A stretch of DNA of 64,000 bases. Origin: an uncultured Solirubrobacterales bacterium (GTDB lineage Bacteria; Actinomycetota; Thermoleophilia; Solirubrobacterales; 70-9). How positions within the stretch are numbered: the stretch's first letter is position 1; the number at the start of each line of letters is the position of its first letter. Shown here one piece after another: positions 41,496 to 56,005 of this stretch. The stretch covers positions 343,010-407,009 of the forward strand of contig CAWEDL010000003.1 of NCBI GenBank assembly GCA_963807885.1. The letters are read 5' to 3'. The notes under the pieces were generated by a model that was not told the DNA's origin, ran no database searches, and saw only the letters and a list, made by a program, of their open reading frames with translations. Position numbers and translations under genes: made by a program.

Positions 41496-42638
41496 TCACC
41501 GGACATCGGCCTCCTGGCCCGCGGTCCTATCCAATACTTCACTTTGTATAGTAACGCCCCGGTCAATCGGCAGGCCCTCCGCTTCCCAGTGCGTAACACG
41601 GCTGCGAAGCTGGAAGAAGGCGACGACGCCGAACGGGATCGGCAGCCAGAAGGCGACCAGGCGGTAGATCAGGATCGCCGGGAAGACCGTCCCCTCGGGG
41701 ATGCCGAAGAGGACGAAGGCGCCGATCATCCCCGCGTCGACCGCCCCCACTCCCGCCGGCGCCAGCGGGAAGAGGTTGCCGACCATGCCGAGGAAGAAGC
41801 CCTGCACGACGACCGCCAGCGGCACATGCACACCGAACGCTTTGAACGAAGCCCAGAGGATGCCGATGTTCGTCGCCCAGTAGCCGACGGCGCCGATCAC
41901 CGCCAGCCCACCCCGGCCGGGGTGGATCAGCAACCGAAAGCCGAACCTGACCCCCTCGCCCACCGTCGCCATCACTTTGGCCGCTTTGTCGGCGACCGCC
42001 CTGGCGCGGGGGCGGTGCACGTGCGAGGTGAGCCGTTCGCGCAGGTCGGCGGGGATCAGGGCGGCGAGCACACCGAAGATCAACACCAAGCCCGAGATCG
42101 CGGCCGGGACGATCGTCAGCTCGACCGAGGCCTTGCCGGGCATGACGCCGGTGCGCAACAGCACGCCGAAGACGATCAGCGCCAGCGGGTAGAAGACGTA
42201 CTGGAGGGTGAGGAAGGCGACCATGCGCCGCGCCACTTCGTGACGGACCATCCCCGCCCGGCGCAGAGCCCAGTAGGTGAGGGCGATCCCGCCGGCGCCG
42301 CCGGCCGAGAAGAGGCGGGTGGCCGCCACGCCGGCGAGGTTGATGTCGTAGGTCTCGCGCCAAGTGAGATCCAGAACGTCACCTCCCACGACCGCCTTGA
42401 AGAGCGCGATGTAGGTGGCTATCGCGGCAAGCTCAAAGCCGATCGCAACGACGATCCAGATCGCCTCCGCTTCGCTGAGCTTGCTCATCGCGTCGCCGAG
42501 GCCGACCAGCTTCGGGAAGAGGAAGTAGATCCCGATCAGCAGGAGGAGGACGACGAGCAGCGTCTGCGCTACCCGCCGCCGGGTGAGCAGCGGCAGCTCG
42601 AAGCCGCCGTTGTCGTTCACCGGCTGCTCGGGAGACAC
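41496..42638 (-). CDS. UPF0104 / lysyl-phosphatidylglycerol-synthase-TM (flippase-like) family membrane protein
   Basis: 380 aa, ~8 TM, with family-like layout and motifs (FPKLVGLGD...; GGAGGIALTYWAL). Confidence 0.7.
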   Translation of the reverse strand: MSPEQPVNDNGGFELPLLTRRRVAQTLLVVLLLLIGIYFLFPKLVGLGDAMSKLSEAEAIWIVVAIGFELAAIATYIALFKAVVGGDVLDLTWRETYDINLAGVAATRLFSAGGAGGIALTYWALRRAGMVRHEVARRMVAFLTLQYVFYPLALIVFGVLLRTGVMPGKASVELTIVPAAISGLVLIFGVLAALIPADLRERLTSHVHRPRARAVADKAAKVMATVGEGVRFGFRLLIHPGRGGLAVIGAVGYWATNIGILWASFKAFGVHVPLAVVVQGFFLGMVGNLFPLAPAGVGAVDAGMIGAFVLFGIPEGTVFPAILIYRLVAFWLPIPFGVVAFFQLRSRVTHWEAEGLPIDRGVTIQSEVLDRTAGQEADVR

Positions 42639-42647
42639 ACCCGCAAG

Positions 42648-43589
42648 CTACCCGTTGGCCAGGCGCTCCAGACCCTGCAGGCGACGATTCACCGCTTCCA
42701 CCGCCGGCTCGCCGAGCGCCTCACCCCGTTGCACGGCGGCGACGAGGGCCCCACCGGCAGCGAGGTCGGTGACGTAATGCTCGCCCAGATAGACGAGCGC
42801 AAAGCCCAAGGTAAGGGCATACGCCCAGCCCGCCGCCCCGGCGCGGCGCCCCGTCTCGGCAAGGGACATCGCCGCCGAAACCGACGTCGCGAAGTGCAGC
42901 GAGGGCATCGCCGCCCAGGGATTGCCGCCCAGTGCCTTGTACATACCCGGCCAGGCCGATTTCCAGGTGTCTTCCCCGACCTCGACCATGATCCGCCGCA
43001 CCTGCTCACCGCTGTGGCCGTTCTCCGAGGCCCACCAGGGCGGGGCGGTCGGAGCGGAGAAGTAGACGGCGCAGCCGACGTCGAAGACCGCGGCGAGGCG
43101 GCGCGCCGCGCGGGGGAAGTGCTCGGGGTGGCGGAGCAGGATGAAGGCGAGCGCCGCGTAGGGCTCGATAAACCAGAGCCAGTGCACCCAGGTCAGGAAG
43201 CGGTTGAGGATGCCGACGCCGCCAATGCGCGCGAGGGCGCGCTGCAACCGCACGTTGGGCAGCCGGCCGAAGCCGACGAGCCGGTCGGCGACGATCGGGT
43301 AGCGGATCCGCAAGCGGGCGCGGAGTCGCTCCGGATCGTCGTAGGGCAGCTCGTGGACCATCGTGAAGGCCCACATCTGCAGCGCGTACATCGCCACGTC
43401 GCGCTTGCGGGATCGCGGATAGAGGACGGCAAGCCCGAGGGGCCCAGCGGCGCAGGCGGCGACGGTCGCCGGGGCGGGGATCCGCGCCCGGCGGCGCAGC
43501 AGCGGTACCGCGATCGCCGCCCCGATCGCGGCGGCTGCTCCGGCACGCACCGCCTTGCGCAGCGCCGGAGATGGCGAGGTCCCTTTCAT
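42648..43589 (-). CDS. PAP2-superfamily membrane phosphatase/phosphotransferase (IPC-synthase-like PAP2_C)
   Basis: 313 aa. MPSLHFATSV (PSxH) and GEHYVTD (HxxxD) motifs. Polytopic. Confidence 0.75.
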   Translation of the reverse strand: MKGTSPSPALRKAVRAGAAAAIGAAIAVPLLRRRARIPAPATVAACAAGPLGLAVLYPRSRKRDVAMYALQMWAFTMVHELPYDDPERLRARLRIRYPIVADRLVGFGRLPNVRLQRALARIGGVGILNRFLTWVHWLWFIEPYAALAFILLRHPEHFPRAARRLAAVFDVGCAVYFSAPTAPPWWASENGHSGEQVRRIMVEVGEDTWKSAWPGMYKALGGNPWAAMPSLHFATSVSAAMSLAETGRRAGAAGWAYALTLGFALVYLGEHYVTDLAAGGALVAAVQRGEALGEPAVEAVNRRLQGLERLANG

Positions 43590-43618: not shown

Positions 43619-44317
43619 TTGACGCCTCACAGTCCTGGCACCGACCAGATCGACACGCTGTTGTGGATCGGCTTCGTCGCCGCGACGATTCTCATCGTCG
43701 CGGTCGTCGGCGGGTTGCTCTACATGCTGCGCCGCTACCGCGCCGAGCGCGGCGCCGAGCCGCACCAAATCACCGGCGGCCGCCGGATCCAGGTTCGCGT
43801 CGGCGCCCTGCTGGGAATCTTCGCCGTGGTGCTGTTCGTGCTCAGCGTCGCCTACACCGACAGGGCCCGCGAGACGCCAGCCACCGGCAGCGCCGGGCTG
43901 CAGGTCTCCCACTCCGAGCCGCTGAAGATCGCGACGACCGGGCAGCAGTGGCTATGGCGCTACGACTACCCGAACGAAGCCTTCTCCTATTACAAGCTCG
44001 TCGTTCCGGTCGATACCGCGGTCGAACTGGACCTCGTCTCGACCGACGTCGTCCACACCTGGGACGTGCCGGCCCTGGCCGCCAAGAGCGACGCGGTACC
44101 CGGCAAGACCAACCACGTCGTCTTCCGCGCCGACGAGGAAGGCACCTACTTCGGCCGAGCGGCAACCCTCTCGGGCCAGGCTTACGCCTCGATGCGAACC
44201 GAGGTGGAAGTCGTCTCGCCCGACGAATACAAAGCCTTCATCGCGGGCGAGAAGAAAGACATCCAGTCGGCGCAGGACCGCGTCGTCGGCCTGATCGAAG
44301 AAGGGAAGACCCCATGA
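43619..44317 (+). CDS. cytochrome oxidase subunit II-like protein lacking the CuA site
   Basis: 232 aa (TTG start) with two N-terminal TM segments plus a cupredoxin-like domain. The canonical H..C.E.CG..H..M motif reads DVVHTW...YFGRAATLSGQAYASM, so both Cys and the second His are replaced. Confidence 0.75.
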   Translation: MTPHSPGTDQIDTLLWIGFVAATILIVAVVGGLLYMLRRYRAERGAEPHQITGGRRIQVRVGALLGIFAVVLFVLSVAYTDRARETPATGSAGLQVSHSEPLKIATTGQQWLWRYDYPNEAFSYYKLVVPVDTAVELDLVSTDVVHTWDVPALAAKSDAVPGKTNHVVFRADEEGTYFGRAATLSGQAYASMRTEVEVVSPDEYKAFIAGEKKDIQSAQDRVVGLIEEGKTP

Positions 44318-45999
44318 GCGCGCCCGTGCGGAATCCCGAGCTGGTCATCGACGGCTTCCCGCCGCGCCGCCCCCGCTGGGTGCAGATCGCCACCAGCGCC
44401 GACCACAAGGACCTCGGTCGGATCCTGATCAGCGGCGCCCTCGGCTTCCTCTTCATCGCCCTGGTCGAGCTGTTGATGATGCGGCTGCAGCTGGCGATCC
44501 CCGAGAACACCTTCCTCAACCCGGTCACCTTCAACCGGATGCTCTCGCTCTACGGCGCGACCGCGATCTTCTTCTTCGCGCTGCCGCTCGCCGTCGGCTT
44601 CTTCTACTACGTGGCGCCGCTGCAGATCGGCGCCCGCGGCACGGCCCTGCCGCGCGTCGGCCAAATCGGCACCTGGCTCTTCATCGCCGGCGCCACCGTG
44701 CTCTACGCGGGCTTCCTCTTCACCCCGACCGAGGCCGGCGTGAATCCCCTGCCGCCGCTTTCCGGGATCACCTTCCTGCCCAACAACGGCGTCGACGCCT
44801 GGGCCGCGGCGACCGGGCTGGCGACGCTCGGCTTCGTGCTGATCGCCGTCGACCTGGTGGCGACGCTGCGCCGCCTGCGCGCCCCGGGCATGGCCTGGCG
44901 ACGCCTACCGGTCTTTTCCTGGGCGGCGGCAATCAGCTCCTCGCTGCTCCTGGTGATCGGCCCGGTGATGCTGGCCGCGATCACGATGCTGCTGATCGAT
45001 CGCAACTTCGACGGGATCTTCTTCGCCGGCGACGCGGGCGGCTCGCCGCTGCTCTGGCAGCACCTCAGCTGGATCTTCTTCACCGGCGCCTACATGCTGG
45101 TCCTGATCTTCGCCCTCGGCGCGATCGCCGAGATCGTCCCGGCCCTCTCGCGCAAGCCGCTGTTCAACCGTGGCGCCGTGATCGGCTCGCTGGTCGCGAT
45201 CGCCGTTCTCGGCACGCTCGCCTGGATGCAGAACATGTACACGGCGCCGATCGGGATCGGCTGGAAGTACTTCGCGATGGCGATGTCACTGGCCCTGATC
45301 GTCCCCTTCGGGCTGATCTTCTTCAACCTGATCGCGACGCTCTCCGGCGGCACGGTGAAGATGCGGGCGCCGCTTCTCTTCGCTACCGGCGCGCTGGTGA
45401 TGATCTCGATCGGCCTGGCCTCGGAGACCTCGCACGCGATGGTCGCCCTGGGCTGGCGCCTGCAGCACACCACCGACAGCACTGCGGCAACCCATTTCGC
45501 CCTCGTCGGCGGCGCTGTCTTCGGCGGCTTCGCGGCGCTGCACTGGTGGTTCCCGAAGATGACCGGCCGTGCCATGGGCGAGACCCTCGGGCGCTTCTCC
45601 TTCTGGACGATGGCCGTGGGATCGTTGCTCGCCTTCTTCCCCCTGTTTCCCGCCGGCGGCTTCGAGGATCAGGTGGTCGACGCCTACAAGTTCTTCAACG
45701 ACAGCGATCTCAACGCCTACAACCTGATCGCCACGATCGGCTCCTTCATCCTCGCCGTGGGGATCGTGATGGGCGTGGTCAACGCGATTCTCAGTCGCGA
45801 GGGCGGCGCTCCCACCGGGCACGACGCCTGGGGTGGCGACTCGCTCGAGTGGTTCGCCCTTTCGCCGCCGGACCCGCATAACTTCGACGTCCTGCCCGAC
45901 GTGCGCAGCCCCAGGCCGATGCGCGACATTCGCGAGGCGATCGCCCATCGCAGTGCCCGTGCCGAGCGTCCGGCCCGCGAATCGCAGCCGGTAGCGTAG
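44314..45999 (+). CDS. heme-copper oxidase subunit I-like protein lacking 5 of 6 canonical metal-ligand histidines
   Basis: ATG 44314 overlaps the previous TGA (ATGA). 561 aa, 12-TM COX1-like, and can be aligned by eye to the window's own CtaD. THAVLMIF becomes LYGATAIF, WFYSHPAVY becomes WIFFTGAYM, WAHHMF becomes WMQNMY, and AHIHF becomes AATHF. Confidence 0.75.
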   Translation: MSAPVRNPELVIDGFPPRRPRWVQIATSADHKDLGRILISGALGFLFIALVELLMMRLQLAIPENTFLNPVTFNRMLSLYGATAIFFFALPLAVGFFYYVAPLQIGARGTALPRVGQIGTWLFIAGATVLYAGFLFTPTEAGVNPLPPLSGITFLPNNGVDAWAAATGLATLGFVLIAVDLVATLRRLRAPGMAWRRLPVFSWAAAISSSLLLVIGPVMLAAITMLLIDRNFDGIFFAGDAGGSPLLWQHLSWIFFTGAYMLVLIFALGAIAEIVPALSRKPLFNRGAVIGSLVAIAVLGTLAWMQNMYTAPIGIGWKYFAMAMSLALIVPFGLIFFNLIATLSGGTVKMRAPLLFATGALVMISIGLASETSHAMVALGWRLQHTTDSTAATHFALVGGAVFGGFAALHWWFPKMTGRAMGETLGRFSFWTMAVGSLLAFFPLFPAGGFEDQVVDAYKFFNDSDLNAYNLIATIGSFILAVGIVMGVVNAILSREGGAPTGHDAWGGDSLEWFALSPPDPHNFDVLPDVRSPRPMRDIREAIAHRSARAERPARESQPVA

Positions 46000-46004
46000 G
46001 CGCC

Positions 46005-46907
46005 ATGAGCGGCGCCCAAACGGCTGCCATCCCGCAGAGTGCCGTCGCGCCCTCGCTGCTGCGCGACTTCCTCACGCTGACCAAGCCGAAGGTGCAGTCG
46101 CTGCTGCTCTTCACCACGGTGACGACGATGTACGTCGCCGGCGACCCCTCGCTTGGGCTGGTCTTCCTGACCTGCCTGGGCGGTGCTCTGTCCGCCGGCG
46201 GGGCCGGCGCGATCAACCACGCGATCGACCGCGACATCGACCTCACCATGGCCCGCACCGCCACCCGCCCGGTGGCCAGCGGCCGCATCTCGGCGCGGAC
46301 GGCGATCGGCTTCGGCGCCCTGCTGGAGCTCTGCTCCTTCACCCTGCTGGCGCTGGCGGTCAACCCACTGGCCGCGGCGCTCTCCTTCTCGGGCTTCGCC
46401 GGCTACGTCTTCGTCTACACCCTTTGGCTGAAGCGCACGACGCCGCAGAACATCGTCATCGGCGGCGCGGCGGGCGCGGTCCCGCCCCTGGTCGCCTGGG
46501 CGGCGGTTACGGGCAGCCTCAGCGGCACCGCCTTCTACCTCTTCGCGATCATCTTCTTCTGGACCCCGCCGCACTTCTGGGCGCTCTCGCTGCTGATGGT
46601 GGACGAGTACGCGAACGCGAAAATCCCGATGATGCCGGTGGTCCGCGGTGAGGACGAGACCCGCCGCCAGATCCTCCTCTACACGATCCTGCTCTACGCG
46701 GTGACGCAGCTCCCCTTCTGCGCCGGCGGTTTCGGGGTCGAGTACCTCGTCGCCTCGATGGCCCTGGGCGCCGGCTTCATCTACTGCGCCGTGCGCCTGC
46801 TGCGCAGCGCCGACCGCCGCTGGGCCCTGCGCACCTACCTCTTCTCTCTCGCCTACCTGGCCCTGCTCTTCCTGGCGATGCCACTCGACCGGCTGATCGG
46901 GACCTAG
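46005..46907 (+). CDS. ctaB: protoheme IX farnesyltransferase (heme O synthase)
   Basis: 300 aa UbiA-family protein. GAGAINHAIDRDID and WTPPHFWALS motifs. Starts 5 nt after the CoxI-like stop. Confidence 0.9.
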   Translation: MSGAQTAAIPQSAVAPSLLRDFLTLTKPKVQSLLLFTTVTTMYVAGDPSLGLVFLTCLGGALSAGGAGAINHAIDRDIDLTMARTATRPVASGRISARTAIGFGALLELCSFTLLALAVNPLAAALSFSGFAGYVFVYTLWLKRTTPQNIVIGGAAGAVPPLVAWAAVTGSLSGTAFYLFAIIFFWTPPHFWALSLLMVDEYANAKIPMMPVVRGEDETRRQILLYTILLYAVTQLPFCAGGFGVEYLVASMALGAGFIYCAVRLLRSADRRWALRTYLFSLAYLALLFLAMPLDRLIGT

Positions 46908-47114: not shown

Positions 47115-47405
47115 ATGAGCGCGGAGCGCAAGATCCCCGAGCCCGGCGAGATGGTCTACGCCACACGCCCCTCCTGGGCGCCCGCCTTCTTCGCCTTCGC
47201 CGCCGCTCTCGCGGTCTGCGGAGTCTTTGCCGAGGGCTTCATGGTCCGCGGCTGGATCTACTCGATCATCGGCATCGTCGTCGCACTCTTCGCCCTGCGC
47301 GCCATGATCAGGAGCGCGACGCGAGATTACTTCCGCCTGCCGCGTCGGCAGAAGGCGCGCGGCGGCGTATTGCCGGTGGAAACCATTTCTCCGCCGCGCT
47401 CCTAA
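47115..47405 (+). CDS. hypothetical two-TM membrane protein
   Basis: ATG 47115: MSAERKIPEPGEMVYATRPSWAPAFFAFAAALAVCGVF...IYSIIGIVVALFAL. The upstream part of the track ORF is not protein-like. Confidence 0.5.
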   Translation: MSAERKIPEPGEMVYATRPSWAPAFFAFAAALAVCGVFAEGFMVRGWIYSIIGIVVALFALRAMIRSATRDYFRLPRRQKARGGVLPVETISPPRS

Positions 47406-47415
47406 GCGCGAGCGT

Positions 47416-47817
47416 TCAGTCTGGCGTCATCCCCGACGTCGCTCCAGCGCTCGTCCACACCCTGACAATGTCGCGGATCGAGAGGACCCCGACCAGATTC
47501 CCCTCGTCGAAGACGACCAGGTGGCGGATGCCGCGCCTCGACATCTCCGAGGCGGCATGCTCGAGGCTCCAGTCGGGCGAGGCGGCCACGACGCCCTCGC
47601 TCATATGCTCGGAGACCAGCTCCTCATCGGGATCCTCACCATGGCCGAGCGAGTTGAGGATGTCGCGCTCGGTGACGATGCACGGCACCGGGCGCTCGTC
47701 GTCGGTGACCAGGGCCGCCCCGATGCCCTTCTCGACCATCATCGCCGCCGCCTCGCGCAACGTGTGCGATGGCCCGACGGTCAACACCACCTCCGACATC
47801 CCGTCCCGTACCTGCAT
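47416..47817 (-). CDS. CBS-domain pair protein
   Basis: ATG 47817 is preceded by AAGGAGG. 133 aa with two CBS repeats (...GIGAALVTDDE..., ...RHLVVFDEGNLVGVLSIRDI). Confidence 0.85.
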   Translation of the reverse strand: MQVRDGMSEVVLTVGPSHTLREAAAMMVEKGIGAALVTDDERPVPCIVTERDILNSLGHGEDPDEELVSEHMSEGVVAASPDWSLEHAASEMSRRGIRHLVVFDEGNLVGVLSIRDIVRVWTSAGATSGMTPD

Positions 47818-47948
47818 TCCCGTCCGCCTCCTTCGTCTTTCGCGGGTTAGTGATGATCGCCTCAAGCCTACCCGACGGGAGGCACTCCACACGCAGCTTG
47901 GGAGCGGCCCCGACGTATAGACTCCGGCGCGCTTCGCGCCGCACGACG

Positions 47949-48665
47949 ATGCTCAAGCCAACGACCCCGATCCGACCCCTTCTCGCCCTTGCCGCCCTGG
48001 TCGCGGTGGCCCTTGCGGCCTCCGGCTGTGGCACCAGCACGGCGGACGAGCAGCGTGGCCGCGTCCTCTTCGTGCAGAAATGCGGCACCTGCCACGCGAT
48101 GGCGCAGGCGGGCACGACGGCCCAGATCGGGCCCGACCTCGACGACGCCTTCGCCGCCGCCCGCGAAGCCGGCGAGGGTGGCGAAACGATCGAAGGGATC
48201 GTCGAAGCGCAGGTCGAGTTCCCACGGCCGAGCAACAGCAACCCCGCCGCCTCGATGCCGGCTGACCTGGTCACCGGCCAGGACCTCGAGGACGTCGCCG
48301 CCTACGTCGGCATGTACGCCGGCGTCCCTGGCGCCGCCCCGCCGAAAGTCCCGGGTGGCCCTGGCGCTCAGGTCTTCGCCAGCAATGGCTGCGGTGGCTG
48401 CCACACGCTGGCCGAGGCCGAATCGGGCGGAACCGTCGGACCGAACCTCGACGAAGTCCTGCCCGGGCAGTCCCTGGCGATGATCGAAGAGGACATCGCC
48501 GATCCCAATGCCGCAATCGCCAAAGGCTTCCCACCGAACGTGATGCCCGCCGATTACGAGCAAACGCTGACGCCGAAAGAACTCAAGGACCTGGCCCAGT
48601 TCCTGCTGGAAAGCACCCAGTCCGGCGGCGGCAAGGGCGGCGGCTCGAAAAGCCAGGGCGGCTGA
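47949..48665 (+). CDS. di-heme c-type cytochrome lipoprotein
   Basis: ATG 47949: signal/lipobox LAASGCG. Two CxxCH motifs (CGTCH, CGGCH), each followed by a distal Met region. Confidence 0.85.
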   Translation: MLKPTTPIRPLLALAALVAVALAASGCGTSTADEQRGRVLFVQKCGTCHAMAQAGTTAQIGPDLDDAFAAAREAGEGGETIEGIVEAQVEFPRPSNSNPAASMPADLVTGQDLEDVAAYVGMYAGVPGAAPPKVPGGPGAQVFASNGCGGCHTLAEAESGGTVGPNLDEVLPGQSLAMIEEDIADPNAAIAKGFPPNVMPADYEQTLTPKELKDLAQFLLESTQSGGGKGGGSKSQGG

Positions 48666-48709: not shown

Positions 48710-49738
48710 ATGGGGACCCGCCTCAAAGACCGCCTCGACATCTCTCCTCAGCGCTATGCCCAGGTCACCTCGGTCGCGCTCGCGGCGCTGGCGCTGATCG
48801 TGCTGACCGGCGCCGGCGTGCGGATCACGGGGTCCGGCCTCGGCTGCCCGGATTGGCCCAAATGCTACGGCGGCACGGTGCCCCCGCTCGACACCCACGC
48901 GGTGATCGAGTACGGCAACCGGGTGCTCACCGGCTTCGTCGGCCTCGCCGTGATCGCAGCCAGCGTCCTCGCCTGGTTTCGGCGCCCCTTTCGCTGGCAC
49001 CTCGCCTTCTTCGGCGCCCTGCTGCCACTCGGCGTGATCGGGCAGGCGATCCTCGGCGCCCTGGTCGTCAAGTACCACCTCGCCCCCGGGCTGGTGATGA
49101 GCCACTTCATCCTCTCGATGCTGTTGCTCGACGCCGCCTTCGCCCTCGCCTGGTGCTCGCGCTACGAGCCGGGCGAGCGGCGCTTCTCGACCGACCGGCT
49201 CGGCGTCTGGGCGGTGCGGACGCTGATTCCCATCGGCCAGCTGACGATCCTCGCCGGGACGATCGCCACGGCTTCCGGGCCCCACGCCGGCGCCCACGAC
49301 GGCCAGCTCGTCCACCGCTTCACCTTCGAGGGCACGGGCACCCTGGAGTGGGTCGTGCAGCGCCACTCGGCAATCGCAGCCGTGTTCGGCTTTGCCGCGG
49401 TCGCCGTCTGGCTGTTTCTACGCCGTCCTGACGGCGACAGACGCGCCGTAAGACCCCTGACCGCGGTAATCGGCCTGCTCGCCCTCCAGGGCGCTGTAGG
49501 GGGACTGCAGTGGGCCCTGGAGCTGCCCGGCGAGCTCGTCTGGATCCACGTGGCCCTGGCCACGATCACCTGGCTGGCGATGCTGTGGACGGTGGCTACG
49601 GCGGGGAGGCTGGAGCCGCGGGCTCAGCCGTCAGGTCGACGACAACGTGGGTTATCGGCAGATCGATCTCCGCACGCGCCCGGTCGACCACGCCGTGCTC
49701 CAGCCAGCGCGAGCGGTGCGGCGGGTGGGTCGAGATGA
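48710..49738 (+). CDS. ctaA: heme A synthase (COX15/CtaA family)
   Basis: 342 aa with VRITGSGLGCPDWPKCYG motif and 8 TM. The last ~45 codons overlap the convergent gene and may not be genuine. Confidence 0.85.
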   Translation: MGTRLKDRLDISPQRYAQVTSVALAALALIVLTGAGVRITGSGLGCPDWPKCYGGTVPPLDTHAVIEYGNRVLTGFVGLAVIAASVLAWFRRPFRWHLAFFGALLPLGVIGQAILGALVVKYHLAPGLVMSHFILSMLLLDAAFALAWCSRYEPGERRFSTDRLGVWAVRTLIPIGQLTILAGTIATASGPHAGAHDGQLVHRFTFEGTGTLEWVVQRHSAIAAVFGFAAVAVWLFLRRPDGDRRAVRPLTAVIGLLALQGAVGGLQWALELPGELVWIHVALATITWLAMLWTVATAGRLEPRAQPSGRRQRGLSADRSPHAPGRPRRAPASASGAAGGSR

Positions 49739-50258
49739 CGATCTCGTCCGCGGGGAAGACGCGCAGCGCGTCCTCGATCGCCACGTTCGGGTCGGAATCG
49801 CCGATCTCACCCCTTGCCTCGAGGCCCTGCCTCTCGATCTCGATCCGCGAGAGCTCCATCCGCTGCCGCGCCAACTCGATCGCTTCGTCGACGTCGGAAG
49901 CCCAGTGCTCGGCGCGCGAAACACCGAGAGCCGGCGTGACGACCAGGATCTCGCAGTCCCGGTTACGGCAGCGCTCGCGAATCTCATCGAACAACGCCTC
50001 ACCACCGACGGTCTCGTTGGCGACGACGAGCAGCCTGTGCTTGCCGTCCCCGCCCCGGGTCAAGGCAACGCTGCGCGGCAGCGAGCCACGCGAGTTCCGA
50101 TAAGCGACACCAGCCCCAAAGCCAAGCAGCAGCGCCGCCCACACGACTCCGATGACCGGCCGGGTCAGCAACGTCAGCAAGATCACCGACACCGCCGCGA
50201 CCCCGATCACAACCACCCACCGAAACGCATCAGCCTCGGATCTCAGCGGATTGTGCAT
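49596..50258 (-). CDS. membrane-anchored USP-like (HUP-class) domain protein
   Basis: 220 aa with two TM segments, then HRLLVVANETVGGEALFDEI...ILVVTPAL...HWASDVDEAIELARQR...GEIGDSDPNVAIEDAL...DEIVISTHPPHRSRWLE...PITHVVV. Paralogous to 17339..17938 and 52421..53294. Confidence 0.6.
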   Translation of the reverse strand: MHNPLRSEADAFRWVVVIGVAAVSVILLTLLTRPVIGVVWAALLLGFGAGVAYRNSRGSLPRSVALTRGGDGKHRLLVVANETVGGEALFDEIRERCRNRDCEILVVTPALGVSRAEHWASDVDEAIELARQRMELSRIEIERQGLEARGEIGDSDPNVAIEDALRVFPADEIVISTHPPHRSRWLEHGVVDRARAEIDLPITHVVVDLTAEPAAPASPP

Positions 50259-50298: not shown

Positions 50299-51795
50299 TT
50301 AGCCAATACGGAACCGGCTTATCGCATCGTCGCCCACGTCCAAGCCGTAGAGCCAGCGCCCGTCGGGGCTGAGCAGCAGCTGGCTCACCTTGTAGAGGCC
50401 CGAGCCGTAGCCGCGGCGGCTGCCGGTCTTGAGGACCTTGGAGCAGGCCCCGTTACCGTCGGGACCGAATTTCGCGTCCGCGGTCATGCAACCGAGATAC
50501 GAGAGCTTCCCGTTTGCGGGGTTGCGCTTGAAGGCCGCGAGCGCGGAGTCCGCGCCCGCCGCGACGTAGAGACGGCGGCCGTTCCTGCTCACCACGACAC
50601 CGCGGGCGCCGCTCAGGCCGGTGCCGTCCGCCAGGCGGCGGGCGGCCGGGATGATCGTGCAGGTGGGCGATTCCCGCGTAGCGGCGATGCACGCCGTCGC
50701 GGTCAGGTCACCGGTCCCTCGGTTGCGCTTGAACACCTCCAGCGACCCGAACATCGAGGTCGCGTACAGCGAGCGGCCGTCTGGGCTCAGCGCCAGGCCG
50801 GTGGGCGCGTCGAGCCCGCCGTAGGAGTGGCGCCCCGCGGTCCGCGCCAGCGTGCAGGATGGCTGCAGGCGCTTGTTCTCGGTGATGCAGCTGCGAAAGG
50901 CGATCTTGCCGCTTGCGCGGTTGAGGTCGAAGGTGACGACGCTGCCGCCGTGCTGGTTGGCCAGGTAGAGGGTTCGCCCACCCGGCGCGATCAGCGGGCT
51001 GCGCGGATCGTCGATCACGTCCTTCTTCGTGCGTACGCACGGCGGCGAGTCGCTGGGCAGCGCCGTCAGGCAACCGGCGTAGCTGAGCGCGCCGCTGCCG
51101 GGGTCGCGCTGGAAGGTGGTGATGGCGAAATCCTGCGCGACGTAGACGAAGCGATCGTTGGGGCTGATCACGATCCCCACTGGATCGCTCAGGGCAGGGC
51201 TCGACATGGTCGGGTTCGGCGGGGCACCGGGAAGCATCGTGCACACCCCGGGGTTGTCGTTGTTCATTTCGGTGCTGCCGGTGACACAGCTGCGGAAGCT
51301 GAGCGAGCCGGTGAGCGGATCTCGGGCGAACGCCATGACCGTGCTGTCGCCGCCGTTCACGCCGCTGGTCGTGTAGGCGAAGCGGCCGTCGTGGCTGACG
51401 GCGAGCGCGTTGACCAGGTTGAGTCCCGAGCCGGTCGTCGTCTTGACCGTGGCGAGCTCGGTGCACGGCCCGCCGAAGTTCCCGGTGAGACAGTCCACGA
51501 AGGAGAGCGCCCCACTTGCCGCCGTGCGCCCGTAGTTGACCACGGACGAGGTGGACGATCCGGTCGCGTACAGCGACGAGCCATTCGCTGCCAGCGCCAT
51601 CGCGCTCGGACGGTCCATCGCTTTGCCGGAGTTGCTCGGCGGAGGCGCGAGCCGACAGCCACCCTTTTGTGCCACATCCGGGTGGGCGGTGACGCAACCG
51701 GCAAAGGAAACACCCAGGTCGCCGTGCGCAACTGCCGGCCAAACGAACAGGGCCACGGCCGCGAAGAGCAATGCGCCCCTTTGCAGCGACCGCAT
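50299..51795 (-). CDS. secreted seven-repeat beta-propeller-like protein with two Cys per repeat
   Basis: ATG 51795 shares a base with the ctaE TAA (TAATG). Signal peptide MRSLQRGALLFAAVALFVWPAVAHG. Seven ~60-70-aa repeats of the form L-S-F/Y-x-x-C-hydrophobic-T ... C ... SPDGR-LY. Confidence 0.7.
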   Translation of the reverse strand: MRSLQRGALLFAAVALFVWPAVAHGDLGVSFAGCVTAHPDVAQKGGCRLAPPPSNSGKAMDRPSAMALAANGSSLYATGSSTSSVVNYGRTAASGALSFVDCLTGNFGGPCTELATVKTTTGSGLNLVNALAVSHDGRFAYTTSGVNGGDSTVMAFARDPLTGSLSFRSCVTGSTEMNNDNPGVCTMLPGAPPNPTMSSPALSDPVGIVISPNDRFVYVAQDFAITTFQRDPGSGALSYAGCLTALPSDSPPCVRTKKDVIDDPRSPLIAPGGRTLYLANQHGGSVVTFDLNRASGKIAFRSCITENKRLQPSCTLARTAGRHSYGGLDAPTGLALSPDGRSLYATSMFGSLEVFKRNRGTGDLTATACIAATRESPTCTIIPAARRLADGTGLSGARGVVVSRNGRRLYVAAGADSALAAFKRNPANGKLSYLGCMTADAKFGPDGNGACSKVLKTGSRRGYGSGLYKVSQLLLSPDGRWLYGLDVGDDAISRFRIG

Positions 51796-52421
51796 TAGAG
51801 GATGTATACAGCGGTGTAGACGATGATCCACATGACGTCTACGAAGTGCCAGTAGATGCCGGGGACCTCTACGCCGAGGTGATCCTTTGCCTTGGGGCCG
51901 AAGTGGCCTCGGAAGGCGCGGATCGTGGCGAAGCTGAGCAGCATCAGGCCGACGAAGACGTGGGCGCCGTGCAGGCCGGTGAGGCCGTAGAAGATCGAGC
52001 CGAAGGCGAGGTCGCGGGCGCTGAAGCCGATGTGCACGTACTCGTTGATCTGGATGAAGAGGAAGGTCGCGCCGAGCAGCCAGGTGAGCACGAGGCCGAG
52101 CTTCAAGCCGTTGCGGTTGCCGCGGCGGATCGACTCCAACGCGTAGTGGATCGTGAAGCTCGAGGAGACCAGGATCGCGGTGTTGATGCCGGCGACGGCG
52201 ACGGGCAGCTCGTAAGGCTCGGGCGGCCAGGTCGGCGGGTCGACGACGACGCGAAGGAAGAAGTAGGAGGCGAAGAACGCCCCGAACAGCATGATCTCCG
52301 AGACGATGAAGAGCAGGATGCCCAGCGTCTGCCGGTCGATCCGCGAGCTCTCATGGGCCTCGGGCGGGCCGTGGTGCTCCTCCTCGTGGGCGTGGCCGAG
52401 TGCGACCGTCGCGCTCTCCAT
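51795..52421 (-). CDS. ctaE: cytochrome c oxidase subunit III
   Basis: 208 aa with ILLFIVSEIMLFGAFFASYF and HGAHVFVG...YWHFVDVMWI motifs. Its ATG shares a base with the upstream TGA. Confidence 0.9.
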   Translation of the reverse strand: MESATVALGHAHEEEHHGPPEAHESSRIDRQTLGILLFIVSEIMLFGAFFASYFFLRVVVDPPTWPPEPYELPVAVAGINTAILVSSSFTIHYALESIRRGNRNGLKLGLVLTWLLGATFLFIQINEYVHIGFSARDLAFGSIFYGLTGLHGAHVFVGLMLLSFATIRAFRGHFGPKAKDHLGVEVPGIYWHFVDVMWIIVYTAVYIL

Positions 52422-53294
52422 CAGGACTCCTCTCCCCCGGCCACGGCGGCGGCGACCGCCTCCGCGGGTCGGCCGACCTCGAGGTGCTCGACCTGCTTGT
52501 CGGTGATCTCCCGGGTGCGCCCGATCAGGTCCTCGTCGAGCCAGCGCGAGCTCTCGCCGGCGAAGGTCGAGATCAGCACCTCGTCGATCCGGTAGTGCTC
52601 GATCGCGTTCTGCACGGCGTGGAAGGGATCGGGGCTCATCGGTTGGCCGGTGGCGTCGATGTCGGCCCGGTAGAGCTCGGCGAGGGTCGAGGCGAGGTCA
52701 CGGACGATCTCCGGCTCGGAGACGTCCTCGGCGCGCGGGCAGATGATCGTGTAGCGGTGCGGATGCCCGGCGGCACGCTCCTTCAGCCTCGCGACCAGGT
52801 CCGGTGCGGCGACCGTCTGGGTGGCGACGACGAGGGTGTGGCTTTTCTCCCAGCTGATCGAGTCGTCCTGGACGCGCACCGGGATGTGCGTCACCGTCAC
52901 ATCGGGCTCGACAGTGGTCCTTCGCCCACTCGACGAGGTCCTTGCGGGTGAAGCCAAAGCGCGTTCCGGAGCGGCAGGAGAGCAGCACCTCGCCCGGTTC
53001 GTGGGCGCGCACCGCGTCGTCGAGGGCTAGCGCCGGATCGCGGTCCATGACCTCGCCGACCGACTCGACCCCGTACTCGGAGAGGATCGACATCGTCACC
53101 TCGACCCGCGCCCTGGCGGCGTCGCGCAGCTCGCCGGCGTCGATCAACTGGCCGACGGCGGGCTGGTTCTGCGGCGCGGCAACGGCGACGAACGGCACCT
53201 TCTCGGCCCGCTCGGCGACGGCCTGCAGCAGCTTGCGGCCACCGGCGACCTCGTTGAGGAAGACCAGCAACGGCCGGCCGGTCTCGTCGCTCAC
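52421..53294 (-). pseudogene. tandem USP-like (HUP-class) two-domain protein, one frameshift
   Basis: GTG 53294 overlaps the ctaD TGA. Domain 1 reads PLLVFLNEVAGGRKLL...FVAVAAP...GEVMDRDPALALDDAV...GEVLLSC...DLVEWAK. Domain 2 continues in another frame: TVEPDVTVTHIPV...HTLVVATQTVAAPDL.... The indel is near 52916-52924. Confidence 0.6.
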
Positions 53295-55197
53295 GTCTGC
53301 CCCACCACGGTCGGCTCGGGCTTGGCGACCTCGGTGCCCTCGCCGGCCATGATCGCGTGGCGAGCACCGGGAACGCCGAACTCATAGGGGCCGCCGACGA
53401 CCCGCGGGATCTCGTCGAAGTTGAAGATCGGCGGCGGCGAGGAGACCTGCCACTCGATCGTGTTCGCCCGCCAGGGATTGGCGTCGGCGCGAGGCCCGAA
53501 GCGCCAGCTGACGACCATGTTGTAGAGGAAGACGAGCTGGACGGCGCCGAGCATGAAGGCGCCGCAGCTGATCAGGAGGTTCCACTCGCCGAACTGGGTC
53601 GCGTAGTCGGCGACGCGGCGGGGCATGCCGTCCATCCCCACCCAGTGCATCGGGATGAAGGTGATCCAGGTGCCGATCACGGTCCCCCAGAAGTGGACCC
53701 GGCCCAGTTTCTCGTCGTACATCCGCCCGGTCATCTTCGGGAACCAGTGATAGATGCCGGCGAAGATCGTGAAGACCGAGCCGCCGAAGAGGACGAAGTG
53801 GATGTGGGCGACGATGAAGTAGGTGTCGGAGACGTGGATGTCGATCGGCACCATGCCCAGCATCACGCCACTGATCCCGCCGATCGTGAAGGTGACGATG
53901 AAGGCGAGCGCGAACAGCATCGCCGTCGAGTAGGTGTGGATCTTGCCGAAGTAGAGCGTGCCCAGCCAGGAGAAGATCTTGATCCCGGTCGGCACCGCGA
54001 TCAGCAACGTGGTGATCATCATCGGCACACGCAGCCAGCTGAACATCCCGGCGACGAACATGTGGTGCGCCCAGACCGAGTAGCTGAGCACGACGATCCC
54101 GATCAGCGCCAGCGCCATCAGCCGGTAACCGAAGATCGGTTTACGGGCGTGGGTGGAGATGACCTCGGAGATGATCCCGAAACCGGGCAGCATCATGATG
54201 TAGACGGCCGGGTGCGAGTAGAACCAGAAGATGTGCTGGTAGCTGATCACGTCACCGCCTCCGGCAAAGCCTGGAAGAACTGGGTGCCGAGGGCGCGGTC
54301 GAAGAGAACCATGAACTGGGCGCCGGCGATGAAGGGCGTCGCGGCGACGACCAGCAGCGAGGTCGAGAGGTTGGCCCAGACCAGCAGCGGCATGCGCCAG
54401 AAGGTCATTCCGGGCGCACGCATGGTGATGATCGTGACTAAGAAATTGAGCGCGGTGGCGATCGAGGAGGCGCCGGCGAACTGGACGCCCAGGTTGAAGA
54501 AGGACTGGCCTAACGGAGCCCCGGTGGAAAGCGGCGCGTAGCCGGTCCAGCCGGCGTCGAAAGCGCCGCCAGGGGCGAGGAAGCTGCCGATGAAGAGCAG
54601 CCCGGCAAGCGGCAGCATCCAGAAGCTGAGCGCGTTGAGGCGCGGGAAGGCCATGTCCGGCGCGCCGATCATCAGCGGCAGCACGTAGTTGGCGATCCCG
54701 GCGAAGACCGGGATCACGAAGACGAAGATCATCAGCACGGCGTGGGTGGAGAAGAGGCTGTTGTAGGTGGCGGCATCGACGATCTGGGTGCCCGGCTGCG
54801 CCAGCTCGGCCCGGATCAGCATTGCCATCAGCCCACCCACGAAGAAGAAGAAGAAGGTCGTGCAGATGTACTGGATGCCGATCACCTTGTGATCGGTGTT
54901 GAAGCGGAAGTAGTCCTTCCAGCTCTTCGCGCCGTGCTGGGAGTGATCCTCGGGGATCGTCGGCATCCCGGCAGCCCAGCGCAGCCAGTAGTCGAAGCAG
55001 CCGAAGCCGGCGAGGAAGCCCAGCGGGCCGGTGACGAGCGGCACGACGACGTGCGGGTAGCCGGTCTGCTCGGTCTGCCAGATCGGCAGGCCGGAGATGT
55101 CGCGCAGGACGACGACCAGGCCGACGCCGAAGGCGGCAGCCAACACGGCACCGAGCAGGCCTCGGATCCATCCCGGTTGCTTGATCGCGGCGACCAT
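53291..55197 (-). pseudogene. ctaD: cytochrome c oxidase subunit I (A-type), one frameshift
   Basis: The N-terminal ORF (54247..55197) has STHAVLMIF. The C-terminal ORF has all remaining ligands: WFYSHPAVY, WAHHMF, VAHIHF. The junction ...GTQFFQ | (G)FAGGGDVISYQH needs one missing base near 54262-54272. Confidence 0.9.
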
Positions 55198-55213
55198 CAG
55201 ATCTGCTCCTCCA

Positions 55214-56005
55214 TTATGCCCCGCCCGCTCCTAGGGGAATCGGGTCGGTTTCGGTGTCCTGGCGGATCGTTTCAAGATAGGGATCCGGCACTTTGTCTTT
55301 CAGCCCGGCGACCCATTTGCGGAAGTCGGCCGCCGGTTCGACCACGACCTTCGCCCGCATCGAAGCGTGGCCGAAACCGCAGAGCTCGGTGCAGATCAGC
55401 TGATAGGTCCCCGGCTTGTCGGGGGTGACGATCGCGGTCGTCGTGATGCCCGGGACATTGTCTTTCTTGATCCGCCACTCCGGCACCCAGAAGGAGTGGA
55501 TCACGTCCAGCGCGTGCATCTTGAACTGGACCTGGCGATCGAGCGGGACGTGCAGCTCACCCTGGGAATAGGCGTTGCCCTTGCCGGGATAGCCGAAGCT
55601 CCAGGCGAATTGCTGGGAGAAGACGTCGACGGTGAGCGGATTTTCGGCCGGTTCTTCGATGTCGTTGAGGACGGCCCAGCTGTAGCCGGCGCCGAAGAGG
55701 ACGATGATCGTCGGGATCAGCGTCCAGGCGACCTCGAGCCGCGTGTTGCCGTGGATCGGCTCGCCGTCGGATTCGTCGCCGGGCTTGGCTTTGAATTTCC
55801 ACAGGGCGTAGAAGAGCATCACCATCACCAGCGAGAAGACGAAGGCCGAGAGGACGATCATCACGTTGAGCAGCTCGTCGATCTTGGGGGCCGCCGTCGA
55901 GGCGCCCTGGCCGTCCCAGTTGATCGGCACCATCACCGCCGAGATCACCACGGTCAGGACAATGGTGGCGGCGAACATCTTCGCTATCGGCAGACGGCCC
56001 ATCAT
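55214..56005 (-). CDS. ctaC: cytochrome c oxidase subunit II (intact CuA site)
   Basis: 263 aa with two TM segments. CuA motif DVIHSFWVP...CTELCGFGHASM. Confidence 0.9.
   Translation of the reverse strand: MMGRLPIAKMFAATIVLTVVISAVMVPINWDGQGASTAAPKIDELLNVMIVLSAFVFSLVMVMLFYALWKFKAKPGDESDGEPIHGNTRLEVAWTLIPTIIVLFGAGYSWAVLNDIEEPAENPLTVDVFSQQFAWSFGYPGKGNAYSQGELHVPLDRQVQFKMHALDVIHSFWVPEWRIKKDNVPGITTTAIVTPDKPGTYQLICTELCGFGHASMRAKVVVEPAADFRKWVAGLKDKVPDPYLETIRQDTETDPIPLGAGGA

Follow-up and report, generated by a model that had tools for sequence, protein, structure and literature searches.

An apparently undescribed, conserved pair of oxidase subunit II- and I-like genes lacking cofactor ligands and adjoining ctaB in Solirubrobacterales

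An oxidase-like gene pair upstream of ctaB

The stretch of DNA considered here, referred to throughout as the window, comprises 64,000 nucleotides of an uncultured Solirubrobacterales bacterium (contig CAWEDL010000003.1, positions 343,010 to 407,009); it has a G+C content of ~69% and is most closely related to metagenome-assembled genomes of the order Solirubrobacterales (class Thermoleophilia, phylum Actinomycetota). On its forward strand lie two genes, here called cox2L and cox1L, whose products have the architecture of subunits II and I of the haem-copper oxidases (HCOs) but lack nearly the whole set of cofactor ligands, and which are followed directly by ctaB, the gene for haem o synthase. 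The pair belongs to a real and conserved pseudo-oxidase branch of the HCO superfamily that is apparently undescribed, and for which we infer a possible function in haem A supply or oxidase assembly.

The gene cox2L (43619-44317, 232 amino acids (aa), TTG start) encodes a subunit II-like protein composed of two N-terminal transmembrane (TM) helices and a cupredoxin domain (Pfam COX2, PF00116, 1.5e-20), and cox1L (44314-45999, 561 aa) a subunit I-like protein with 12 TM helices (Pfam COX1, 3.9e-86), the PF00115 match extending over profile positions 3-436 of 436; COX1 and COX2 are the only families in Pfam and NCBIfam that match the two proteins. As a sequence-only reading of this locus had already stated, the two frames overlap by ATGA at 44314-44317 and five nucleotides separate the cox1L stop codon from ctaB; both can be read directly from the DNA, the spacer being gcgcc and the ctaB ATG lying at 46005. 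A purine-rich GAAGGGAAG stands directly 5' of the cox1L start. The product of ctaB (46005-46907, forward strand) is, judged by its profile scores, a bona fide haem o synthase (NF003349, 344.8 versus a cut-off of 246; TIGR01473, 324 versus 210.3).

Because the window has 69% G+C and spurious open reading frames (ORFs) of 929 and 1017 aa overlap genuine genes nearby, the length of an ORF is by itself no proof that cox1L and cox2L are genes. That they are more than chance ORFs is indicated by their hidden Markov model (HMM) scores, by a G+C content at third codon positions (GC3) of 0.88 in cox2L and 0.93 in cox1L, and by their conservation in 80 genomes, described below.

Loss of cofactor sites on a retained fold

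The architecture claimed for the pair in the sequence-only reading is supported by the Pfam matches and, for cox1L, by a confident fold model. An AlphaFold model of cox1L built from a shallow alignment of close orthologues was poor (per-residue confidence, pLDDT, 58.6) and was superseded by one built from 132 family sequences, which shows twelve TM helices with a pLDDT of 86.1 and a predicted TM-score (pTM) of 0.89. Using Foldseek, this model was superposed on subunit I of solved caa3, bo3 and actinobacterial aa3 oxidases (2yev, 7n9z, 9gy6) with a TM-score of 0.90 and a root-mean-square deviation of 1.8-3 Å.

The ligand columns of cox1L were taken from three alignments, namely a phmmer alignment with Mycobacterium smegmatis CtaD (6hwh), a MAFFT alignment with bovine COX1 and canonical bacterial CtaDs, and an alignment of a family profile of 132 sequences with PDB entries; the numbering of the bovine sequence agrees at 34 known residues. 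All three are concordant on these columns, and the possibility that ligands are hidden by misalignment is ruled out by this agreement between pairwise HMM, MAFFT and family-profile alignments. In bovine numbering, the haem a ligand H61 is replaced by Y80 while H378 is kept as H394, the haem a3 ligand H376 is A392, the CuB ligands H240, H290 and H291 are T257, Q306 and N307, and the cross-linked tyrosine Y244 is M261. One of the six metal-binding histidines (H394) is thereby retained, and no His or Cys is placed at any of the substituted ligand positions. These losses had been named correctly in the earlier reading apart from one detail, as a tyrosine (Y260) does occur one residue ahead of the cross-link column, its histidine partner being gone. 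Further losses that had not been noticed concern the proton pathways and the haem propionates: D91 at the entry of the D channel is G109, E242 at its end is A259, K319 of the K channel is I335, and the propionate pair R438/R439 is V455/D456. The residues W126 and Y54 are also altered in the MAFFT alignment with bovine COX1.

A reference set for these comparisons is provided by the canonical aa3 oxidase genes of the same window (51795-56005, reverse strand), which include ctaC (55214-56005, identified from its translation), ctaD (53291-55197) and ctaE (51795-52421; Pfam COX3, 6.1e-41), with two unnamed ORFs between ctaD and ctaE. The canonical CtaC and CtaD keep every ligand (signature of CtaD, HHYHHHH / RDAKRR), and CtaD carries an A2-type YSHPAVY motif. 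Since cox1L is just 31% identical to this CtaD and cox2L 30% identical to the neighbouring CtaC, the pair must be an ancient paralogue, and recent duplication is not its origin.

With respect to subunit II, the CuA ligand set H...C.E.C...H..M is absent from cox2L, whose corresponding columns read H146, A181, T183, S185, Y189 and M192. The first His and the Met are kept, and both Cys and the second His are replaced, just as the earlier reading had it; electron entry through CuA is excluded, as judged from these columns. The match of cox2L to the CoxB model TIGR02866 is borderline (149.3 versus a cut-off of 147.7), and cox1L falls far below the equivalog cut-offs of TIGR02891 CtaD_CoxA (376 versus 670.75) and NF050116 (330 versus 880), as well as those of the QoxB and CyoB models TIGR02882 (313 versus 1015) and TIGR02843 (310 versus 1020). 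Nitric oxide reductases (NORs) of the superfamily, which have haem ligands plus three His and usually a Glu for FeB (PMC11214002), are no match for cox1L either, on the evidence of the same ligand columns. On the strength of its sequence, cox1L fails as the catalytic subunit I of an A-family O2 reductase, and reduction of oxygen or NO and proton pumping through D or K pathways are excluded.

Conservation and selection

Scanning a single genome for each species recovered 382 loci with a cox1L relative, and the best 80 of these (75-92% identity) were analysed; they belong to Solirubrobacterales, except for three labelled just Actinomycetota or Actinomycetes. In all 80 loci cox1L is free of stop codons in the alignment and adjoins ctaB, cox2L, rebuildable as an ORF in 79 loci, is intact in 78 of them, and the junction between the two genes is mostly an overlap of 4, 7 or 10 nt. 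The replacement residues themselves are conserved, with Y80, N307 and H394 invariant in 79/79 orthologues and Q306 present in 78/79. The same applies to the former CuA columns of cox2L, where the orthologues show His (79/79), Ala or Ser for the first Cys, Thr, Ser for the second Cys (78/79), Tyr for the second His (78/79) and Met (79/79).

Ratios of nonsynonymous to synonymous substitution (dN/dS; medians of pairwise Nei-Gojobori estimates) amount to 0.33 for cox1L, 0.35 for cox2L, 0.21 for ctaB, 0.23 for ctaA and 0.39 for the cytochrome c gene described below, values of which only the comparison between genes is meaningful, the absolute figures being rough because GC3 bias compresses dS. Both members of the pair are maintained by purifying selection. 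Two doubts that the sequence-only reading had raised against itself, decay of the locus and mis-assembly, can thus be answered: the orthologues are intact and under constraint, with a ratio of about 0.33 for cox1L, and the same arrangement recurs in 80 independent assemblies. Carriers number at least 80, and probably several hundred, genomes of soil Solirubrobacterales, in addition to many proteins from metagenomes.

A wider family with a re-engineered core

An exhaustive search of 50%-identity representatives for full-length relatives of cox1L returned P0122, P0124 and P0128, with 51%, 44% and 38% identity to the window protein, respectively, and a follow-up search around P0124 added 118 further 90%-identity clusters, the named ones all from Solirubrobacterales or Actinomycetota. 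When the seven positions corresponding to bovine H61, H240, Y244, H290, H291, H376 and H378 are read as a signature, the commonest one in the wider family is ATLQNDL, which includes no ligand His whatsoever, and most members lack every ligand His. The pair Y80/H394 is restricted to the subclade of the window, the wider family having mostly A/S and L there. The replacements are consistent across the family: Q occupies the H290 position in 114/121 members, N or S that of H291 in 117/121 and D that of R439 in 112/121, G at the D91 position is near-universal, and R38 (R57 in cox1L) is kept in 120/121. On helix IX, G352 and G355, two glycines that pack against haem a3 and do not vary among the 13 canonical sequences used for comparison, have become L (98%) and E (92%). 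The family has a cytoplasmic C-terminal motif of its own (PDVR...DIR) and shares with canonical CtaD the motifs WQHL, WFPK and DPWG..LEW..SPP.HNF. The conservation of the replacement residues argues for a re-engineered core and not for drift, and the family signature is, at the level of sequence, what one would expect if a pseudoenzyme had kept a function.

The gene arrangement is equally persistent. The contigs of P0122 and P0124 show the same gene order as the window, including genes for PAP2_3, ctaB, the small ORF, a CBS-domain protein and cytochrome c, and the order cox2L-cox1L-ctaB persists in two loci (L081 and L082) at 41-50% identity to the window protein. P0128 represents a rare lineage of two clusters. 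At its locus (L084, 3378-8051), which has the same neighbourhood, subunit I has just two His ligands left, the partner subunit II has a complete CuA motif, and downstream of cox1L come ctaA, then ctaB, then a canonical caa3 operon; P0128 may be an evolutionary intermediate, a stage of decay. Beyond these two clusters, P0128 is related to A1-type CtaDs of Thermoleophilia of the normal kind. The neighbour-joining tree is crude, and it was not relied on for the number of independent origins.

The gene neighbourhood and its link to haem A synthesis

The gene order common to the 80 loci is LPG_synthase_TM, PAP2_3 (both on the opposite strand), cox2L, cox1L, ctaB, a small TM ORF, a CBS gene (opposite strand), a cytochrome c gene and ctaA. 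In the window, ctaB is followed by the gene for a small protein of 95 aa with two TM helices (47118-47405, forward strand), which is found in 72/80 loci and also in L081, L082 and L084, and by a CBS-domain gene on the reverse strand (47416-47892), which was detected by tblastn in 69/80 loci and, as a Pfam CBS match, at the equivalent place in L081, L082 and L084, and which separates the small ORF from a di-haem cytochrome c gene (47949-48665, forward strand; Pfam Cytochrom_C in two stretches, 4.5e-19; 69/80 loci). The haem A synthase gene ctaA comes next (48710-49738, forward strand; Pfam COX15-CtaA, 6.3e-26, 91.6 bits versus 29.9; 69/80 loci), at most 3 kb downstream of ctaB. The earlier reading had listed the di-haem cytochrome c and ctaA, which the Pfam matches confirm, and small TM ORFs in the plural, of which one conserved example stands, the CBS gene occupying the space before the cytochrome c. 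The 95-aa protein gives sub-threshold matches to PF12270 Cyt_c_ox_IV in 9/15 members (best E 0.0019), a hint that it is possibly related to the C-terminal half of the actinobacterial oxidase subunit IV (CtaF), and it could be a third component of the cox2L/cox1L module.

Degenerate ligand signatures are also found in several other subunit I homologues among the representatives, and the contexts of four of these were looked up. P0152, which keeps both haem a histidines and has lost the haem a3 and CuB ligands (L085, 4008-13677), lies in the order ctaA (opposite strand), ctaB, COX1-like, COX3-like, cupredoxin-like, TlpA-like thioredoxin and canonical caa3 operon. Degenerate P0165 is found in the order COX2-like, COX1-like, ctaB, degenerate P0154 in the order LPG_synthase_TM (opposite strand), COX2-like, COX1-like, ctaB, and the COX1-like gene of degenerate P0186 overlaps a UbiA gene. 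The testable UbiA-family neighbours of degenerate COX1 genes all pass haem o synthase cut-offs, and assembly-type genes also occur beside degenerate COX1 lineages from metagenomes. An orphan COX1, P0135 (L091, 3182-5300), has all seven active-site residues and lacks the propionate Arg pair; its gene overlaps by 8 nt that of a haem o synthase extended at its N-terminus by ~100 residues.

Comparison with known systems

The closest comparison is with the actinobacterial aa3 oxidase subunits CtaC/CtaD (6hwh, 8hcr, 7qhm), with which the pair shares the 12-TM subunit I fold (TM-score 0.90, ~32-33% identity), a subunit II of two TM helices and a cupredoxin domain, the order II then I in overlapping genes, and common motifs. 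In contrast to these oxidases, the pair has no ligands for haem a3, CuB or CuA and one of two for haem a, no cross-linked Tyr, no D- or K-channel residues, no propionate Arg pair and no adjacent subunit III gene, and cox1L misses the NCBIfam equivalog cut-offs widely. The quinol oxidases (bo3 and aa3-600, cyoABCDE) resemble the pair in their CuA-less subunit II and in an operon with cyoE/ctaB downstream of subunit I, and cox1L obtains PDB and NCBIfam scores against them that are similar to those for CtaD. Quinol oxidases have retained the six His and the Tyr in subunit I, together with both proton channels, and they possess subunits III and IV; of their combination of a CuA-less subunit II with a fully liganded subunit I, the pair shows the first half and lacks the second.

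Variation in the active site has been described within the superfamily, since NOR families exist without the active-site Tyr, and gNOR, in which one active-site His is replaced by Asp, is still a redox enzyme like the others (PMC11214002, Murali et al. 2024). The gNOR resembles the pair in combining an HCO scaffold bearing substituted active-site residues with a cupredoxin subunit that lacks CuA ligands (PMC11214002), but these recently described NOR families change one or a few active-site residues, while cox2L and cox1L have lost nearly the whole cofactor set. No description of a ligand-less HCO was found in full-text searches of the literature, Murali et al. 2024 covering redox-active variants only, and there is no dedicated NCBIfam model or curated family for cox1L-type proteins. 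Members of the family are annotated at source as cytochrome c oxidase subunit I, ctaD or cbb3-type oxidase subunit I, and such look-alikes inflate both the number of terminal oxidases counted from annotations and the respiratory capacity inferred from them.

The known biogenesis factors Surf1, CtaM and the CtaA-CtaB complex (PMC9145763) share with the pair a genomic association with ctaA/ctaB, and the step proposed here for the pair, which comes after haem A has been made and before it is inserted into subunit I, would fall within their field. They differ in having no relation to cox1L or cox2L in sequence or fold, and the pair does not belong to the Surf1, Cox11/CtaG, Sco or CtaM families of Pfam and NCBIfam. 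Surf1 holds haem A via a conserved His, unlike most members of the cox1L family, which have no candidate ligand. No Surf1 was found among the scanned ORFs of the window, which span part of it.

These comparisons matter in that a scaffold of oxidase subunits I and II can evidently persist under selection in the long term with essentially no redox cofactor sites, which will be unexpected to specialists, for whom the six histidines are the invariant feature that defines the superfamily.

A tentative role in haem A supply or oxidase assembly

Several functions had been left open by the sequence-only reading, of which a scaffold or assembly factor is the one we favour; a proton channel or pump is rejected, as D91, E242 and K319, key residues of the D and K pathways, are gone. 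Our leading interpretation, still a tentative one, is that the pair forms a non-redox pseudo-oxidase module working with CtaB and CtaA in haem A supply or oxidase assembly. According to this proposal, cox2L and cox1L would assemble into a membrane heterodimer with the whole subunit II/I fold (12+2 TM helices), unable to bind haem a3, CuB or CuA and devoid of a D or K proton pathway, which would be made from the ctaB transcript, seemingly in fixed proportion to CtaB. By mimicking apo-subunit I, the heterodimer could serve as a docking platform for the haem O and haem A synthases, and possibly for the CtaF-like small protein, and the platform would stabilise or gate the production of haem A and its hand-over to the real CtaD encoded ~7 kb away. 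A surface recognised by partners can have been retained, given that the fold is fully kept (TM-score 0.90 to holo-oxidases). How subunit I receives haem A from CtaA is recognised as a gap in knowledge, and no subunit-I-like factor is known for this step (PMC9145763); the scaffold proposal fits this gap, the coupling to ctaB, and in relatives also to ctaA, making the pair a concrete candidate for it.

Several considerations weigh against this proposal. Its support is genomic linkage, and the 80 genomes come from one order, so that their conserved synteny partly reflects shared descent; the roughness of the absolute dN/dS values, mentioned above, applies here as well. A control, the canonical COX1 P0138, adjoins a CtaA-CtaB fusion, which makes adjacency to ctaA/ctaB non-discriminating when taken alone, and since normal oxidases share it, the linkage may have been inherited from an ancestral operon without being functional. 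None of the unusually long family members examined joins a degenerate COX1 to CtaB or CtaA in one protein; the candidates for such a Rosetta-stone protein hold just COX1, and the four longest odd ones, in which COX1 is matched in two separate stretches, look like frameshift chimeras for that reason. For the family as a whole, a haem carrier relying on ligation is unlikely because most members have no plausible axial ligand. The informative point is that the coupling has outlasted the loss of all catalytic potential, down to 41-50% identity.

A more specific form of the proposal, possible though rather doubtful, holds that the HCO scaffold has been repurposed, in this lineage and apparently more than once in others, as a cofactor-free membrane module dedicated to haem o synthase which, mimicking apo-subunit I, would control or channel the farnesylated haem passing between CtaB, CtaA and the true oxidase. 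If this is true, no biogenesis factor derived from an oxidase would have been known before, and the pair would open the unsolved delivery of haem A to genetic study.

Alternative functions

Among the alternatives, the best survivor, unlikely as we take it to be, is that the pair is a structural and non-catalytic subunit of the aa3 oxidase or the bcc-aa3 supercomplex, for example the silent partner in a dimer, and that it shares its regulation with haem A synthesis only because aerobic respiration needs both. Such a role would suit a protein that has kept the complete oxidase fold and has loop and C-terminal motifs in common with canonical CtaD. The CtaF-like small protein and di-haem cytochrome c of the cluster would also fit, as would the canonical cta genes situated 6-10 kb off in the window and in another locus (L053), and the nearest relatives of solved structure belong, as subunits, to obligate actinobacterial III2-IV2 supercomplexes. 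However, the tight coupling is to ctaB and not to ctaC/D/E or qcr genes, and the other degenerate lineages lie beside ctaB and assembly-type genes and not inside oxidase operons; we also know of no precedent for a silent oxidase-like structural subunit.

It is distinctly improbable that the pair has been neofunctionalised as a transporter or ion-binding protein in which the former binuclear cavity binds or conducts a cation, Cu(I) or a lipid-like molecule. A candidate polar/Met site would be formed by Q306, N307, E371, M305, M308, M322 and a D at position 392 in most members, in keeping with the family-specific conserved polar residues in TM helices VII, IX and X at the former haem a3/CuB sites, and the conserved membrane-lipid enzyme neighbours (PAP2_3 and the flippase-like LPG_synthase_TM), otherwise unexplained, would find a place in it. 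Nevertheless, neither of the two known proton pathways has its key residues left, position 392 is Ala and not Asp in the subclade of the window, and the polar cluster could just zip helices together in the absence of haem. The idea of a Met-triad Cu(I) site is weakened by the fact that M308 is canonical and that M322 is Met in 4/13 canonical sequences.

Slightly less probable still is a single-haem carrier confined to the subclade of the window, in which Y80 and H394, at the former axial positions of the low-spin haem a, would hold a His/Tyr-ligated haem for storage or chaperoning of haem O or haem A. His/Tyr ligation is typical of haem-trafficking proteins, and the invariance of both residues in the 79 close orthologues, the retention of R57 (bovine R38, near the haem a formyl group) in 120/121 family members and the location beside ctaB and ctaA would all fit. 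Against this, the propionate Arg pair has become V/I-D, W126 and Y54 are altered, and the two axial positions are mostly A/S and L in the wider family of the same synteny; as Y80/H394 are missing in most members, haem binding would be a late, lineage-specific addition and not the function of the family.

Finally, that the pair is a decaying pseudogene or an assembly or sequencing artefact, a suspicion nourished by an indel-rich window with a frameshift in ctaD and fragmented genes at 33.8-39.6 kb, is improbable in the extreme and is rejected on the comparative data, namely two ORFs intact in the window, no stops in cox1L across 80/80 genomes, its GC3 of 0.93 and dN/dS of about 0.33, invariant replacement residues, and the same synteny down to 41-44% identity, the recurrence in 80 independent assemblies likewise speaking against mis-assembly.

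Further features of the window and of related loci

The intactness of the pair is notable because the window carries many frameshifts elsewhere. A 1-nt indel inside ttcttccaggctttgcc, near 54265-54275, puts the two parts of the canonical ctaD in different frames; it is probably an assembly error, the alternative being a true pseudogene. Between 33807 and 39589, genes are fragmented or frame-split, including the C-terminus of an acyl-CoA dehydrogenase (109 aa), fragments of an enoyl-CoA hydratase and a 3-hydroxyacyl-CoA dehydrogenase, and an alkyl sulfatase in two frames. The window seems rich in indels, in a pattern typical of an uncorrected long-read assembly.

Upstream of the pair, and divergent from it, lie a gene for a PAP2_3 membrane phosphatase or transferase (42648-43589, reverse strand; Pfam PAP2_3, 3.3e-23), also found in 76/80 loci and in L081 and L082, and one for an LPG_synthase_TM or flippase-like membrane protein (41496-42638, reverse strand; Pfam PF03706, 2.2e-23; TIGR00374, 62.5 versus 43.2), also found in 75/80 loci and in L082, L084, L088 and L091. 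The starts of the PAP2_3 gene and cox2L are 29 nt apart. A TAGGAT hexamer (a TANNNT-type -10 element) lies ~10 nt 5' of the TTG start of cox2L, a position suggesting that the cox2L transcript may be leaderless or have a very short leader; a promoter/terminator scan of 41.4-50.4 kb yielded nothing informative. The flippase-like gene, usually accompanied by PAP2_3, stands divergently beside the COX2-like/COX1-like genes in L082, L084, L088 and L091, and the linkage holds at just 33-44% identity and beside the fully liganded orphan COX1 of L091; it may be functional or may reflect conserved synteny.

The cytochrome c ORF opens at 47769, within the CBS gene of the opposite strand, and has a Met followed by a lipobox (LAASGC) at 47949, which makes the di-haem cytochrome c probably a membrane-anchored lipoprotein. 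The cupredoxin-like protein at the P0152 locus has 330 aa, a weak cupredoxin match and a C..H..M motif. Genes of the TENA_THI-4 family, which has a haem-oxygenase-like fold, occur just 5' of two other degenerate COX1-ctaB loci (L087, 4303-4968, and the JGI contig of P0186).

The window has three copies of a domain that is unnamed and without a Pfam match, all on the reverse strand (49596-50258, 52421-52957 and 52698-53294), with 28-30% mutual identity. One copy adjoins ctaA and has N-terminal TM helices, the two others stand in tandem between the canonical ctaD and ctaE and are probably one gene with a frameshift, and the family flanks oxidase genes in relatives as well.

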